DNA from: Gemmatimonadales bacterium
GTDB lineage: Bacteria; Gemmatimonadota; Gemmatimonadetes; Gemmatimonadales; GWC2-71-9
Assembly: GCA_041613315.1 (NCBI GenBank)
Contig: JBFJHJ010000001.1
Location: 74,152-138,151, forward strand
DNA: 64,000 nt
Reading direction: 5' to 3'
Within the stretch, counting starts at the first letter, position 1; the number at the start of each line of letters is the position of its first letter. Positions 53,501 to 59,500 of this stretch are shown here, in pieces. Made by a program: the position numbers.

Positions 53501-56500
53501 GGGACACGGGCCGCACGCTGTACATCCTGGACGAGCCCACGACGGGCCTGCACTTCGAGGACGTGCGGCTCCTGCTCACGGTGCTCCACCGCCTCGTGGA
53601 CAAGGGCAACACCGTGATCGTGATCGAGCACAACCTCGATGTGGTAAAGACGGCCGACTGGGTCGTGGATTTGGGTCCGGAGGGTGGTGCCGCCGGGGGC
53701 CGGGTGGTCGCGGAGGGCCCACCGGAGGCCCTCGTCTCGGTCACCGCGTCGTTCACCGGACGCTACCTGCGCCCGTTGCTGAGCGACTGAGCCGCCGGGC
53801 CGCGCGCCCCGCGGCTTTACAACCGGAGCACGGTGACACTTCTTGAAACAGTCCCCCGTACGGAGGTCGGGACAGGAGGGCAGGGATGGATCCGCTCGAT
53901 CTTGGTCTAGGGATTGCCATGGTCGTCGGTTCGACCGGGCTGGTGGCCGTGGGCGTGATGTTTGCGCGGGCGGTCATGCGCAAGTGGGCGCGACCGGCTG
54001 CCGCGATCGGGTCGGCCGAGGTCCAGGAGTTACGCCGCGCCGTGAGCGAGCTGGCCGCGGACGTGGCGGAGCTCCACGAGCGCGTGGACTTCGCGGAGCG
54101 GATGCTCACGAGCCGGCAGGACCTCCCGCAACTCGAGGAACGCAGCTCATGATCATGAGCCTGGGCCCTTTTCTCGTGCCCATCATGCTGTTTGTGGTGA
54201 TCGGCCTCGTGGCGGTGCTACGCGGCCCGATCGGCAAGGCCTTCGCCGACCGGATCGCGGGCCGGTCGACGTCGGGCACCGAATGGAGGGAGACCGAGGC
54301 GCTCCGCGGCGAGGTCGAGGAGCTCCGTCTGCGGATGACCGAGTTGGAAGAGCGGCTCGATTTCGCCGAGCGGATGCTGGCCCGAGCGCGCGAGCCGGAG
54401 CGGTTGCCGGAAGGCTGAGTCCATGGAGATCCTGATCCCCATCGTGCTGTTCGTGAGCGTTGCGGCGACCGTGATTTTGCGGGGGCCCATCGGGAAGGCG
54501 ATGGGGGAACGCATCGCTGGGCGTGGTGGAGACGAGGCGGCCGGGCGCGGACAGATCGCAGCGCTCCAGGCGGCGATGGAGGACGTCCACCACCGCGTGG
54601 CGGAGCTGGAGGAGCGCGTGGACTTCACCGAGCGGGTGCTCGCGCGGGCGCGCGGGGCCGACCGGCTTCCCGAGCCCTAAACCGTGCCCAGCTGGGTCTG
54701 GATCCAGAACGTGGTGCTCCCCATCCTGGGCATGGGGCTTGGCGGGCTGTTCATGTTCGGTGTGTACCGCACCGTCAACCGCTGGATCGATCGGCGACAC
54801 GAACGCGAGATGGCCGCGCGGGGCCAGTTCCCGACGCCGGCGCTGGAGCGGCTGCAGCAACGCGTCGAGGCGCTGGAGGACGTCGCGTACCGTGTGCAAG
54901 AGCTCGAGGAACGGGTAGACTTCGCCGAGCGCGTCCTGGCCCGCGGGCGCGGCGCCGAACGGCTCGAGCGTCCACCGAGCTAGCGAGGGCACGGCGCATG
55001 GACGCGGGCATCGTTGTGCCGATTGCTGGCATGGTCACGGGCATCATCCTGGGGCTCCCGCTGGTGCGGGTGGCGGTCCGCTACCTGGAGGAGCGCGTGT
55101 TGCGGAGTGGATCGGAGGGTGCGGCGGAGCGGCGCGGCATCGACGAGCTGCGGGCGCGCCTCGAAGTCGTGGAGACCATGCGGGACCGACTCACCGATGT
55201 CGAGGAACGGCTGGACTTCGCCGAGCGGATGCTCGCGAGAAGCCGCGACCGTACGGAACTTCCTCCGGCGAGGTAGCCGTGCAGACACCACCGCTGCCAC
55301 CCCTGCCGCCGACGCCGCCTGGTGTGCTGATCGAGGACGTCGTCCTGCCGATCCTGGGGATGGTGCTCGGGGGCTTCATCATTTGGCAGCTCTTCCGGAC
55401 GATCAACCGATGGCTGGACCGCCGCGCGGGCGGCGCGCCGGATGACGTGCGCGCGCTCCGGGCCGATGTCGAGCGGCTTCGGGCGCAGACCGACGGCGTG
55501 GAGGAGCTCCGGCACCGGGTGGGCGAGTTGGAGGAGCGCGTCGATTTCACCGAGCGAGTGCTCTCGCGGCAGCGGGAGCGCAATCCGCTGGGACCAGGAG
55601 GTGCGTAGGTGCCGTCGGACTGGGTGCTCGTGCTGATCATCGCGGGGACGTTCTCCGTGCTCTCCGGCGTGGCTTGGGGGGTGCTGGGAACCGTGAAGTG
55701 GTACCTCCGCGAGCGCGTGCGCCTGCAGGAGCGGCTGGCGCAGCTCGGGTCGGCGGAAGCCACCCCGCGGATTCAGGCGCTGGAGGATCGTGTGGCCGAG
55801 CTCGAGGAGCGGCTGGACTATGCGGAGCGTCTCCTCGCGCCCGCCCGGACGCACGGGCCGCTGGCACCCGGCCGAGAGGGATGAGCGGTGGAAGGACCGG
55901 AACTCATCGTCATTCTCGCGACCATCGGCTCGGTCACCGCACTGGGGTTCGCGTTCTTCCGGGCTCTTGGGAGGTACTGGGAGCGGAAGGGCCAGACGGG
56001 CGGCTCCAGCCCGGAGGTGCGGGCGCTGGCCGGCCGGCTCGAGGGCGTCGAGCTCGAGCTGGCCGCGCTCCGGGACGCGGACACACGGCTGCAGGACCTC
56101 GAGGAGCGACTCGACTTCGCGGAGCGCGTGCTGGCCCGTCACAAGTCACCGCCGCTCCCGGGCGACGTGTAGCGGTGGCAGACATTCTCGCGATCACGTT
56201 CATTTTCGGGGGAGGATCGCTGTTCCTTCTGGCGATTTCCCCGGTGGGCCGCGCCATCGCCGAGCGGATCCGGCGACGGGGCGACGGCAGCGCCCGGGAG
56301 GCCGTGGACAAGCTGCGGGAGTCGCAGGCGGCGATCGTTGAGGAGCTGGACGCGCTGCGCCAGGAGCTCACGGAGGTGCAGGAGCGGCTCGACTTCACCG
56401 AGCGGCTCTTGGTGCGACACCGCGAGATCGGCGAGCTGCCCTCGAAGGCGGGAGACTCGGCACCGTAACGCGCGTTCCCCGGTGAAACGCTCGGCCCGCG

Positions 56501-59500
56501 TTCGCCGTAGGGTTGGGTGCCCCCGCCGGGCCGCCACCGGCTCGGCGGTCGAAGTGGCGCAGGTGCCGACGACCCTTCATCTTATCGTCAGGAGGGCAAG
56601 TGATGGGTGGACTGTTCACGGCGCTCGCGCTCGTCATCGTGGCCTATTGGTTCCTCCGCTCACCGCTGTGCGGAGCGATCTGCGACTCCATCCGGGCGCA
56701 GGCGGGCGGCGGGGCGGATCCCCGCGCCTTGGACCGGCTCGAGGAGACGGTGGAGCGGTTGGCGGACGAGCTGAGCGGGCTGCGGGCGGACGTCGTCGAG
56801 CTGGCCGACCGGGTGGACTTCTCGGAACGGATGCTGGTCGAACTCCGGGAGCGCCACGCGCTCCCGGCGCATCGGGCGTGAGTGGTGGCCTTTATTTGCA
56901 TCATGGTAGCGCGCGGGCCGGTGGGAGCGGCTGGCGCGGCGTACCGGAAGGGGTAACACCGAGATGGGCATCTTTCAGCGTCTCGCCACGGTGATCAAAG
57001 CACAGATCAACGCCCTGATCGGGCGGGCGGAGGACCCGGCCAAGGTCCTCGATCAGCTGCTCATCGACATGCGGGGCCAGTTGGCGAAGACCAAGCAGGA
57101 GGTCGCCTCGGCCATCGCGGACGAGAAGAAGCTCCAGGCGCAGGTCGAGAAAGAGAAGAAGTCGGCCGAGGAGTGGGAGCGCCGGGCGATGCTCGCCGTC
57201 CAGGAGAACCGGGACGACCTGGCGAAGCAGGCGCTGGTGCGACACAACGAACACCTTCAGCACGCCCAGCAGCTCCACGAGACGTGGATCCGTCACAAAG
57301 GGGACGTGGAGGCGCTCAAGAACTCGCTCCGGGAGCTGAACGATAAGATCGAAGATGCGAAGCGCAAGAAGAACCTCCTCGTCGCCCGGCAGCGGCGCGC
57401 CGAGGCCCAGAGCCGGATCCAGGAAACGATGTCCTCGATGTCGAACCAGAGCGCGTTCGAGAGCTTCCGTCGGATGGAGGAGCGGATCGAGGATATGGAG
57501 CGGCAGGCGCTGGCGGCGGCCGAGCTGGCCGGCGAGTTGGAGGGCGATACGCTCGACCGGCAGTTCGAGCAGCTGGAGTACCGGGGCAACGCCGAGCAAC
57601 AGCTCCTGGCGCTCAAGGAGAAGATGGGCATGCTCCCCGCGGGCGAGGCGCCCGAGCGCCGGCAGCTGGCGGGCGGCGACACCGAAGACGTAGCGGAAGC
57701 GGAGGTCGTGGAAGAAGAAGACAAGGACTGAGCCCCGCTCGGCAGCAGCGGCGGAAGGCCCCCCGGCACGAGCTGTGGGGGCCTTTTTGCGTGCGGCGTC
57801 CCGGGAGCGCCGACCGTCCCACCGTCGTGGACGGATCACCTCCGGGCAGCCGCGGCCCGACGTCACCCGCGGCGTTCTGGCCGCAATATCGGGCGCCGTC
57901 CCCGCGACGAATCGGTGACGGCGTCGTGGCCCGTCGGCGCTATCGTGTGCCACGTTCCAACTGGGACGACCGTCCGATCGGCCTCCAACGCCACGCCAAG
58001 CGTGGAGGAGGACGACCATGCGACGACTGATCACAACCGCACTGCTGGCGGGCGCGGTGGGGCTGCTTCCCAACCCGACGCCGGCCGACGCGACGACAAC
58101 TGCCGTGGGATGCCTCGAAGAGGCGATCGACTCATGCGACGACGACTTCGGTGGCGGCAGCTTTTACATCGTGGCCATTCGGGGGTACTGCTACATGATC
58201 CGCGCGGGATGGTGCGCCGCGTTCGATTCGTAGACGGCTCTCTCTACCATATGGCCGACCGGACGGCGGCGGGGAGCCCTGGGCTCCCCGCCGGCCCCCC
58301 CTAATGGGCGCGGGCCCGCTCGCCTTTCGCGGCGAGGTCGTGCTGGGCATGCTCTTGGTGACGCGGCACCGAGCCGTCCGCCTGGCCGGGGTGCTGGCCG
58401 TGGTGGTCGTCGGGCTCGCCCTCCTGGCAGGTGACGACGGTGGCGCGGTGGCGCGGCGGCAGGCCGTGTTCGCGGCGGGCGGCTCGCTGGCGGCCGTCGC
58501 CGCCTCCCGGTTGCTCGCGCCCGGAGCGGCGCTCGCGGCGGGCCGACAGACCGGCGGTCCGTGGTGGCGGGCGCCGGTGGGCCGCCTCACGGGAGCGTGG
58601 CTCGTGGTCGCGCCGCCCGTCGCTGCGGCCGCGGTCTTATTGGTGGGGAGCGTCGCGGGTTCGTGGGCCGCCGGGCGCACCGCGGCTGTGGCCGCACTCC
58701 ACGTGGGCGCGGTGGGGGCGCTCGTGCTGGCCGTGGCACCCCTCGCCGGTGCCAGCGCCGCCGCCGCGGTCGGCTTGGCCGTCGCGTGGCTCGGGGGAGT
58801 CCCCCCGTCTGTGATGGGCGCCGCCCTCGACGCGTGGCCCTATCTGCGGCGCCCGGTCGTGTTGGCATGGAATACGCTGCCGCTCGATTGGCGCGCCGGC
58901 CGCTGGCTCAGGGCCAGTACGGTTGAAGACCTCGCCGTGCTCGCCGGCTGGATCGCGCTGGGCTGCATCGTGGCCGCGTGGGCCGCCGCCCGAGCCTACC
59001 GTCGCCCCGACCCCCCGAACGGCAGTGAGCCATGAGCCTGGTCGTGGCTGAAGCGATCACCAAGGTCTTCGGCGCTCGCCGGCGGCGCCGAGCCGTGGTG
59101 GACGCCTGCACGTTTCGTCTGGAGCCCGGTGAAATCATGGGGATCGTGGGGCCGAACGGGGCGGGCAAGACGACGCTGCTTCGGCTCGTGGCCGGTGAAC
59201 TGCCGCTGACGACGGGAACGCTCGCGGTGGCAGGCCACCGCGCGGGCACCCGACGCGCGCGGCGCGCCGTGGGCTACGCCGCCGATCCGCCCATTGCCCC
59301 ACCGGAACTCACGGGCACCGAGTGGCTGGCCTACCTGGCGAGCCAGCGAGCGAGGTCCTCGGGGGAGCGCGCCCGGTTGGTCCGCTCGGCGGTCGAGGTC
59401 GGCGAGACGGCGTCCTTCACGGCCCGGCGCATTGCCACGTACTCACGTGGCATGGCGCAACGCCTGGGGCTCGCCGCCGCGTGCGTGCGCAACCCCGCCG

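Follow-up and report, generated by a model that had tools for sequence, protein, structure and literature searches.

What are ten consecutive genes for a small membrane protein doing between uvrA and pspA in a bacterium of the Gemmatimonadales, and do their products act together with PspA? The locus lies in a stretch of 64,000 nucleotides of contig JBFJHJ010000001.1 (the window), in which the ORFs run from uvrA through ten tightly packed plus-strand genes of 85-109 aa to pspA (Table 1), as an earlier note on this DNA had described (g1-g10, 53886-56881, all +). Gaps between successive genes from g1 to g9 measure -4 to 14 nt, while 134 nt separate g9 from g10 and 82 nt separate g10 from pspA.

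Table 1. Features of the array and its flanks, in window coordinates.
Feature	Position	Strand	Remarks
uvrA	50950..53790	+	946-aa ORF; 5' neighbour of the array, context only, outside the module
P1, putative ECF-type promoter TGACAC-N17-CGTA	53834..53860	+	embedded TGAAAC at 53844-53849; g1 starts 25 nt on
Ribosome-binding site of g1, GGAGG	53875-53879	+	
g1, 88 aa, family copy	53886..54152	+	positional orthologue of copy 1 in related arrays
g2, 89 aa, family copy, subtype ...LRGPIGKA.A.RIAGR	54149..54418	+	start overlaps g1 stop (ATGA)
g3, 85 aa, family copy	54423..54680	+	alignment, profile match, BLAST
g4, 99 aa, family copy, subtype ...YRTVNRWIDRRHERE	54684..54983	+	alignment, profile match
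g5, 92 aa, family copy	54998..55276	+	alignment, profile match, BLAST
g6, 109 aa, family copy, proline-rich N-terminal extension	55279..55608	+	related to g4 (48%)
g7, 91 aa, family copy, motif variant LDY	55609..55884	+	most lineage-specific copy
g8, 94 aa, family copy	55888..56172	+	alignment, profile match, BLAST
g9, 97 aa, family copy, subtype ...ILAITFIFGGG	56175..56468	+	orthologue of last copy in related arrays
P2, putative ECF-type promoter for g10-pspA, exact TGAAAC-N17-CGTA	56483..56509	+	in the g9-g10 gap
Ribosome-binding site of g10, AGGAGG	56590-56595	+	
g10, 92 aa, family copy, motif variant ADRVDFSERML	56603..56881	+	alignment, profile match
pspA/IM30, 255 aa	56964..57731	+	PF04012 E 8.9e-47

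In the alignment of the ten copies, which are 23-30% identical to g1, R66, D68, E71, R72 and L74 are invariant, as previously reported, and E65 and F69 are nearly so. The architecture proposed earlier holds for the array copies: a transmembrane helix at the N-terminus and, towards the C-terminus, a long helix that bears E-E-R-[LV]-D-[FY]-x-E-R-x-L. An AF2 model of g2 (mean pLDDT 87.9) contains helices at residues 9-25, 27-38 and 44-80, the first being the transmembrane helix and the last, which we take to be cytoplasmic, reaching pLDDT 97-99. Basic residues follow the transmembrane helix in the alignment, and the predicted topology places the N-terminus outside and the C-terminal helices in the cytoplasm. 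When the ten copies were searched against Pfam and NCBIfam no model exceeded its cut-off, and the family indeed lacks a model; the statement of no Pfam hit at E<=0.05 needs a small correction, since single members match eight coiled-coil-type families at E 0.011-0.05, every one of them well short of its cut-off. Close homologues are unnamed or 'hypothetical' and without a Pfam domain, the profile finds the expected 11 matches in this genome, and our literature search found no mention of the family. The small bitopic proteins are a genuine family that has no name. The same tail helix terminates a TM2-domain protein in this genome and also occurs on a protein, P0275, whose N-terminal domain differs.

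High-GC DNA yields many long false ORFs, and on the opposite strand ORFs as long as 353 aa run across the array, which raises the prospect that its ORFs are chance frames or remnants of degenerate repeats. We give this a negligible probability and regard it as refuted in practice: the family has 3275 cluster representatives in the protein library at E<=1e-3, of which 710 remain at E<=1e-10, orthologues of the copies are 44-67% identical between genomes, third-codon GC is 0.84-0.90 in the eight copies measured, resembling real neighbour genes, and overlapping start and stop codons, ribosome-binding sites and a confident AF2 model all speak for genuine genes.

Comparison between genomes shows that the copies are old paralogues, each conserved separately and in maintained order. 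Each of the ten finds a higher-scoring match among the copies of other genomes than among its paralogues in the window: g1 matches copy 1 of 6 in locus L100 at 93.6 bits (37.4 for its best in-window paralogue), g4 matches copy 3 of 5 in L101 at 127 bits (80), and g9 matches copy 6 of 6 in L102 at 110 bits (52), and g7, the most lineage-specific copy, reaches 47.4 bits outside the window (43.1). Local BLAST within the window gave 52% identity for g2/g3 and 48% for g4/g6, and g3 is probably a younger duplicate of g2.

We then considered 80 related loci, nearly all labelled Gemmatimonadota, of which 63 contain tandem arrays of 2-13 copies. The earlier observation that pspA follows the array extends to most of them: 56 arrays have 1200 nt or more of downstream sequence, and in 54 of these pspA comes after the array on the same strand (53 by automatic filter, with L131 added on inspection); two 2-copy arrays, L176 and L178, are without pspA. 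The claim that uvrA precedes the array stands in a looser sense, for among the 44 arrays whose upstream flank extends to 3.5 kb or more, a phmmer search with the window uvrA placed a homologue within that flank for 35, but one adjoining the array (<500 nt) was found in only 16 loci. Every genome of the same family matches the profile, as claimed (113/113, including the unpublished G208 and G333), with 2 to at least 20 matches each. Amplification is not exclusive to that family: matches number 6-7 in family f3 and 5-6 in f5, the latter with three genes in an array.

Outside the arrays the association with pspA loosens. Canonical singletons without a nearby pspA occur in 17 of the 80 loci, 14 of which have room for one, and in families f2, f6 and f7 canonical copies are dispersed, more than 1.5 kb away from pspA. 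Because canonical members thus occur as pspA-less singletons, and also fused to other membrane domains, the PspA link is strong for arrays and not for the family as a whole. Across a single sample of 251 genomes (including the unpublished G208, G333, G308 and G248), the small-protein family, like PspA, is present in nearly all genomes of f1-f8 and in just 2 of the 22 of f9-f12; this co-occurrence at family level represents one or two evolutionary events rather than independent tests.

The pspA gene itself is well conserved, its product sharing 53-80% identity with 36 further PspA sequences in an alignment, of which 32 come from related loci and 4 represent genomes in different Gemmatimonadota families, and it is the one PspA-family gene found by a PF04012 search of this genome (82.9% complete). 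In 44 of the 80 loci a CesT_Tir_1 gene lies between the array and pspA. CesT/Tir is a known PspA partner, forming the yjfI-yjfJ type of dyad described by Ravi et al. 2024 (PMC11237479), and its frequency here places the Gemmatimonadota pspA in the CesT/Tir-PspA neighbourhood class. PMC11237479, whose main text does not contain the string 'Gemmatimon', describes band-7, AAA+ and 3TM partners for that class, and no small bitopic array was noted among them. In L196 and L199, from other Gemmatimonadota families, a divergent single small transmembrane protein, with a tail of ...EEQAFLTQLL or ...EEQRFMTRLL, and a CesT_Tir_1 gene (PF22550, E 5.5e-26) stand ahead of pspA. The window differs from these loci and from the 44 in having no CesT/Tir-like gene between g10 and pspA, and a CesT_Tir_1 search of this 82.9% complete genome gave no match, a result of little weight because none of the 14 control genomes gave one either.

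Promoter-like motifs connect the array to pspA from a second direction. A motif of the ECF sigma-W type (TGAAAC, a 16-17 nt spacer, CGTA) is present both before the array and before g10-pspA, and on sequence grounds we designate these putative ECF/sigma-W-type promoters P1 and P2, P1 departing from TGAAAC by one change in its -35 element (TGACAC). Sigma-W elements of Bacillus subtilis consist, according to PMC5758882, of a -35 TGAAAC and a -10 CGTA. The exact form with a 17-nt spacer occurs once in the window, at P2, against 0.04 expected, and a scan of the whole genome for the TGAAAC/CGTA motif returned 12 matches against 1 for the reversed pattern, some of them preceding genes for an M48 peptidase, an outer-membrane efflux protein and a TetR regulator. 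The P1 block TGACAC...TGAAAC...CGTA is kept in seven of the eight closest loci (L100-L107), with L101 deviating, and in L100, L102 and L103 a motif is located between the last copy and pspA. More broadly, 39 of 59 regions upstream of arrays carry the strict motif and 50 of 59 a relaxed one, and the 1.58 Mb of locus sequence contains 50 strict matches, 48 of them at arrays and on the array strand.

An array placed just 5' of pspA behind stress-type promoter motifs makes its products probable membrane partners of PspA. The full proposal, in which they are stress-induced partners within an ECF-driven envelope-stress module, is our preferred reading, with a probability that we hold to be evenly balanced; anchoring of PspA is what gene order, common promoter motifs and phyletic co-occurrence would suggest. 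The genes, conservation, synteny, motifs and predicted architecture are direct results, and the topology, co-transcription, stress induction and, above all, PspA binding are inferred. Counting against partnership are the pspA-less singletons, the dispersed copies in f2, f6 and f7, and L176 and L178. The same singletons and dispersed copies favour a different account, which we consider unlikely although worth weighing, in which the proteins are stress-induced but act without contacting PspA, so that adjacency reflects a common regulon only; they might, for example, associate with one another via the invariant helix, building coiled-coil bundles or a lattice beneath the membrane that would stiffen or seal it. 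The presence of the tail on TM2-domain and other membrane proteins fits this account, as do the many weak matches to oligomerising coiled-coil families. Among solved structures the profile's best matches, weak at E 0.03-0.05, are to full-length KcsA, where a transmembrane helix leads into a helical bundle in the cytoplasm. This account is harder to reconcile with an array-pspA order kept in 54 of 56 informative loci over deep divergence (PspA 61-81% identical), with the divergent copy that still stands ahead of CesT-pspA in other families, and with the absence of the small proteins from just those Gemmatimonadota families in which PspA is missing too.

The resemblance to PspB bears on what kind of partner these proteins might be. 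Like PspB, they are of ~75-100 aa, with a single N-terminal transmembrane helix and then a cytoplasmic helix (AF2, alignment), and as in proteobacterial pspABC, where PspB is encoded in one operon with pspA, the array may be co-transcribed with pspA. The earlier note had restricted the likeness to architecture; the architecture does agree, but the C-terminal helices also resemble each other in sequence, weakly and at the borderline. Among 148 family members, 60 match TIGR02976 PspB at E<=1 (best 1.8e-5), the most of any NCBIfam model, 20 match NF006993 PspB and 17 match Pfam PspB (best 1.4e-4), and the nearest named Atlas cluster is PspB-family (score 0.79, a lead only). Alignment of the family to 13 mostly enterobacterial PspB sequences, a narrow set, by hhalign pairs R-V-x-E-L-E-E-R-L-D with R-I-Q-A-L-E-S-I-L-D at P 5.7e-4, although with a probability of 29.5% and over 25 columns only, which leaves membership of PspB unproven; the score of 24.6 was reached by 1 of 200 segment-wise column shuffles (mean 12.7, sd 2.7). 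PspB duplicates and divergent PspB domains are reported in PMC11237479. The copies might be highly diverged PspB homologues that serve chiefly as sensors or signal transducers, controlling the release or activity of PspA or of an ECF sigma/anti-sigma pair, rather than as anchors.

We judge this improbable, since none of the ten window copies exceeds a PspB cut-off (PF06667, TIGR02976 or NF006993; best 14 bits, E 0.046, against 51.7 bits), nor does any protein in a PspB search of this genome, and GspM (46/148), MtrG (36) and CcmI (29) are matched almost as often, so that bitopic-plus-helix composition explains much of the PspB signal. Of the PspB invariants I63, L64, D65, P69, W71 and R72, the tail residues P69, W71 and R72 are absent: PspB ends in I-L-D-x-x-x-P-x-W-R, whereas the family ends in ...R-L-D-F-A-E-R-L-L-A, with neither P nor W, and PspB for its part lacks the R-x-D-F-x-E-R-x-L box of the family. 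The genes are also upstream rather than downstream of pspA, in 2-20 copies, and a PspC search (PF04024) gave no match at E<=0.01 in this 82.9% complete genome, compared with matches in 7 of 14 control genomes. The array motif, finally, is ECF-type, unlike the sigma-54/PspF control of the classical psp system (PMC9239133).

Partnership with PspA also has precedents in Bacillus subtilis. LiaI is a small membrane protein that acts as an anchor and is encoded just upstream of the PspA homologue LiaH, with which it is co-induced. The array shares the placement of a small membrane protein gene directly upstream of a PspA homologue; LiaI differs in having another fold, a single copy and two-component system control. 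The LiaI-LiaF-TM family is described as a 4-TM region in PMC11237479, while the array copies have one predicted transmembrane helix, and that family was not among the 25 most frequent Pfam families listed for them. In pspA-ydjGHI, which is sigma-W controlled, PspA is co-encoded with integral membrane proteins required for its membrane recruitment, YdjG and YdjH being its membrane anchors (PMC8581546), and the TGAAAC/CGTA consensus of that system (PMC5758882) is the motif found here before the array and g10-pspA. The proteins themselves differ, with zinc ribbons and an NTF2-like domain in YdjG and a TPM domain in YdjH (PMC11237479), and ydjG and ydjH are downstream of pspA and unamplified, unlike the upstream array; no SPFH/YdjI gene was seen in the examined parts of the window.

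Combining these observations, we propose a working model in which the array and pspA would form one envelope-stress module under an ECF-type sigma factor. Each small protein, anchored by its single transmembrane helix with the N-terminus outside, would expose a short juxtamembrane helix and a ~37-residue helix on the cytoplasmic side. The transmembrane parts have split into ancient subtypes, each conserved separately, while the end of the long helix hardly varies. The invariant helix might dock a single cytoplasmic protein shared by all copies, PspA being the likeliest, and in relatives that possess the CesT/Tir-like protein the latter would serve as an adaptor. Upon stress induction of the operon, the transmembrane helices, diverse as they are, would position PspA at the membrane, bring it there or keep it there, a role equivalent to that of PspB/PspC, LiaI or YdjG/YdjH in other systems.

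Simple anchoring would not obviously need ten or more paralogues per single-copy PspA. A more speculative and rather doubtful extension is that the array provides a combinatorial set of membrane receptors for an ESCRT-III-like PspA polymer, the invariant helix nucleating or capping assemblies, directly or via CesT/Tir, and the transmembrane subtypes reading membrane states or sites or forming a hetero-oligomeric ring that templates the polymer. If so, the docking helix on TM2-domain and other membrane proteins would plug them into the same repair machine. New in this analysis are the ECF/sigma-W-type motifs, the old and ordered paralogues, the portable tail helix, the borderline similarity to PspB and the CesT/Tir gene in 44 loci; if the array proteins are indeed partners of PspA, they would be undescribed PspA membrane partners in the phylum Gemmatimonadota.

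The array consists of ten genes on the forward strand between uvrA and pspA (g1-g10; 85-109 codons each), the first of which begins 95 nt past the end of uvrA. An ATGA overlap joins g1 and g2, and intergenic gaps across g1-g9 range from -4 to 14 nt, while 134 nt precede g10 and 82 nt separate g10 from pspA. The ten aligned products show 23-30% identity to g1, with invariant R, D, E, R and L residues within the tail box E-E-R-[LV]-D-[FY]-x-E-R-x-L, and the third-position GC of the copies (0.84-0.90) resembles that of neighbouring genes. Against the Pfam and NCBIfam models, none of the ten copies scored over a cut-off. 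Other genes flank this segment, including three on the reverse strand ahead of uvrA and, starting about 570 nt downstream of pspA, a hydrophobic ORF paired with an ABC-transporter ATPase.

Coordinates of features in the window and in other loci
Feature	Position	Strand	Description
Segment upstream of uvrA	48907-50830	-	contains the next three genes
Macro-domain protein	48910-49416	-	
TPR-repeat protein	49413-50504	-	long low-complexity N-terminus
CutA1	50459-50830	-	
Motif before g1	53834-53860		TGACAC-N17-CGTA
g1-g10	53886-56881	+	small membrane protein array
Motif in g9-g10 gap	56483-56509		TGAAAC-N15-18-CGTA
Rejected sigma-54 element	about 56883-56899		before pspA
pspA	56964-57731		PF04012, E 8.9e-47
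Hydrophobic ORF and ABC ATPase	58304-59955		243-aa ORF without Pfam match, ATGA-overlapping the ATPase (PF00005, E 4.9e-23)
MscS-type channel domain	about 60770-61753		
TM2-tail protein	L011:1240-1647 (G000 contig C5, about 102454-102861)		135 aa; eleventh G000 profile match
Second PspB-like ORF	L098:2195-2416		73 aa, gammaproteobacterial pspABC locus, after pspC
Coiled-coil protein	L196:150-656		169 aa, f5 genome

Searching 1.84 billion cluster representatives with a family profile, we found 3275 proteins at E<=1e-3, of which 710 also pass E<=1e-10; among the 150 matches listed, nearly all measure 80-135 aa and 143 carry the motif. None of the 120 closest homologues listed for g2 has a Pfam domain, and all are unnamed or 'hypothetical' except for four that JGI labelled automatically (three as PilO, one as exopolysaccharide), with the NCBI-named organisms among them being Gemmatimonadales or Gemmatimonadota. 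Likewise, the 30 nearest ESM Atlas clusters contain no Pfam family, and Gemmatimonadota are the commonest source. An AF2 model of g2 (148 sequences; mean pLDDT 87.9) comprises a transmembrane helix (9-25), a short helix (27-38) and a long helix (44-80) at pLDDT 97-99, and no solved structure was matched significantly in a profile search (best E 0.032). In the alignment, residues N-terminal of the transmembrane helix are acidic or neutral and those after it basic, from which we infer, by the positive-inside rule, an N-out, C-in topology.

The tail helix also occurs outside the array. The ten-copy profile has 11 matches in the window's own genome (G000), the eleventh being a protein that begins with a TM2 domain (PF05154, E 4.3e-18) and ends in the family helix (...ELNERVDFVERLL), which marks the tail as a portable module. 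A search for longer members or fusions returned six proteins, only one of which, P0275 (242 aa, on 10 contigs), is built differently: some 130 N-terminal residues form a domain without a recorded Pfam match, followed by a hydrophobic helix and a canonical tail (...ELEERLDFAERVLA). Four of the six, and likewise P0013, were rejected as fusions, as they look like merged or frameshifted calls over tandem copies.

All ten window copies match a protein of another genome better than any paralogue in the window (best bits elsewhere versus in the window: g1, 93.6 and 37.4; g2, 112 and 81; g3, 85.1 and 81.3; g4, 127 and 80; g7, 47.4 and 43.1; g9, 110 and 52; g10, 86 and 52), with orthologues 44-67% identical across genomes. 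Furthermore, copy order is kept, such that g1 corresponds to the first and g9 to the last copy of the arrays in four related loci (L100, L102, L105, L106). Judged by these sequence comparisons, the paralogues thus go back a long way and have each been maintained separately; most of the differences lie in their transmembrane and juxtamembrane parts, and the tail is kept.

To describe the genomic context of the family, we used the best 80 of 386 loci, from a scan in which a single genome represented each species; 78 of these are labelled as some form of Gemmatimonad, one as 'bacterium HR33' and one as 'Miltoncostaeaceae'. Tandem arrays of 2-13 copies occur in 63 of the 80. Where at least 1200 nt lie downstream, pspA comes next on the same strand in 54 of 56 arrays, 53 by our filter plus L131, where the last family match and the pspA frame overlap; the two others (L176, L178) have two copies each. 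In 44 of the 80 loci a gene matching CesT_Tir_1 (PF22550; E 5.5e-26 on L196) lies between array and pspA, and the window and its closest relatives do without it; Ravi et al. 2024 (PMC11237479) had already described the CesT/Tir-PspA dyad as a class of gene neighbourhood. On the upstream side, 44 arrays among these 80 loci have a flank of 3.5 kb or more, and uvrA is present in 35 of these; it lies less than 500 nt away in only 16. The Miltoncostaeaceae-labelled (Actinomycetota) locus, L122 on the 1.5-Mb contig CAVORO010000003.1, reads uvrA, seven-copy array, pspA, a gene order typical of Gemmatimonadota, and its PspA is 62% identical to that of the window; it may be wrongly labelled or a transferred locus.

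We tallied the small-protein family and PspA in the same sample of 251 genomes. Both are near-universal in families f1-f8 and nearly missing from f9-f12, a co-occurrence that fits a link between the two and comprises very few independent events.

Genomes with a small-protein profile match and with PspA, by Gemmatimonadota family (G000 excluded; both tallies include the unpublished G208, G333 and G308, and that of PspA also G248)
Family	Small-protein profile	PspA
f1 (window's family)	113/113 (2 to at least 20 matches each)	113/113
f2	33/52 (1-2 weak matches)	50/52
f3	3/3 (6, 1 and 7 matches)	2/3
f4	4/4	4/4
f5	1/1	1/1
f6	12/15	15/15
f7	27/37	36/37
f8	2/3	3/3
f9	0/3	0/3
f10	1/13	1/13
f11	0/3	1/3
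f12	1/3	0/3

In five genomes of f2, f5, f6 and f7, canonical copies are dispersed (one, G200, has a three-gene array) and none lies within 1.5 kb of pspA. In f5 and f6 the order is a more divergent single small transmembrane protein, the CesT/Tir gene and pspA, which suggests small transmembrane protein - CesT/Tir - pspA as the ancestral unit and places the amplification mainly in f1. Just upstream of this unit, an f5 genome also encodes a protein without a Pfam match, in which a linker rich in Ala, Pro and Glu joins an N-terminal transmembrane helix to a coiled coil at the C-terminus. Gemmatimonas-like genomes have both the locus with the divergent copy, CesT and pspA and canonical copies that are dispersed.

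The arrays share a putative promoter motif. TGAAAC-N15-18-CGTA matches the window once, in the g9-g10 gap, versus 0.04 matches expected, and a TGACAC-type block, present before g1, is conserved upstream of the array in 7 of the 8 closest loci (L100-L107). Among the best 80 of 386 loci, 39 of 59 array-upstream regions contain the strict motif and 50 of 59 a relaxed form; 48 of the 50 strict matches in these loci (1.58 Mb, both strands) lie at arrays and on the array strand. Across G000, we found 12 TGAAAC-N16-17-CGTA sites versus one for a reversed control, and the genes behind them include those for a Peptidase_M48 (L205), an outer-membrane efflux protein (L212), a TetR regulator (L211), a Fis-HTH/PAS protein (L209) and a 73-aa small membrane ORF (L201), together forming a candidate ECF regulon. 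In Bacillus subtilis, sigma-W is described as using TGAAAC at -35 and CGTA at -10 (PMC5758882); sigma-W is reported to control B. subtilis pspA-ydjGHI, where YdjG and YdjH anchor PspA (PMC8581546). A sigma-70 and terminator scan of 53600-58200 gave no promoter-like sites and three terminator-like sites versus 1.7 expected, and a candidate sigma-54 -24/-12 promoter, sought by eye before pspA, was discarded, its GG-to-GC spacing being wrong by 1-2 nt. A search for sequencing runs listed five of DNA labelled marine metagenome, from two studies, four of which may stem from the source sample, and none of RNA.

Among known families, PspB models are those most often matched by 148 family members (TIGR02976 by 60, best E 1.8e-5; NF006993 by 20; Pfam PspB by 17), with GspM (46), MtrG (36) and CcmI (29) close behind, and a PspB model at E<=1 also matches in 13 of 14 control genomes. 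Aligning the family with a PspB profile by hhalign gave a probability of 29.5% (P 5.7e-4, 25 columns), a score reached by 1 of 200 segment-wise shuffles. This profile (13 sequences) is narrow, since the E. coli PspB homologues listed are only near-identical enterobacterial sequences and at class level only 3 of 151 genomes had a PspB match. Unlike PspB, the array family lacks the PspB tail invariants, and no PspC was found in G000 (82.9% complete). Given the low hhalign probability and these absences, we would not file the copies under PspB, which we take instead to be their closest known analogue and perhaps a distant relative. The second small ORF of the gammaproteobacterial pspABC locus L098 has a transmembrane helix followed by ...IEELEERIRTLEAIV..., and resembles the 'PspB duplicates' described in Ravi et al. 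(PMC11237479).

On the most economical reading, the invariant helix would dock a common cytoplasmic partner, most likely PspA or CesT/Tir-PspA, and during stress the small membrane proteins would bring PspA to the membrane, place it or hold it in check there. This reading builds on an invariant, predicted cytoplasmic helix carried by diversified membrane anchors, on a single-copy pspA that keeps its place beside them, on the promoter motif that both share and on the recurrence of the helix in other membrane proteins. The main rival, a co-regulated role in stabilising membranes independently of PspA, strikes us as rather unlikely; it is favoured by orphan copies, since in 17 of the best 80 of 386 loci a canonical copy stands alone and pspA is missing, though 14 of these have room for it. 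Inspecting the neighbours of 15 of these 17 by eye, we saw no obvious recurrent gene.

PspA, IM30 and Vipp1 are bacterial relatives of ESCRT-III, and to our knowledge their delivery to damaged membranes has been worked out only in a few model systems (PspBC, LiaI, YdjGH). Our literature search found no paper naming the family or its motif, and Gemmatimonadota are absent from the main text of two Psp comparative-genomics papers (PMC11237479, PMC9239133), whose supplements or web app could list such neighbourhoods; the array-pspA system is apparently undescribed. What emerges is an unnamed, phylum-wide family of thousands of members, fixed beside pspA, with which it has a stress-type promoter motif in common, and expanded in the richest genomes to at least 20 old paralogues. 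If the invariant helix does bind PspA, it would constitute a minimal, sequence-defined PspA-recruiting peptide, with its R-x-D-F-x-E-R-x-L box offering a direct handle for mutagenesis of PspA binding, and the arrays would represent a natural case of many membrane adaptors serving one remodelling polymer.
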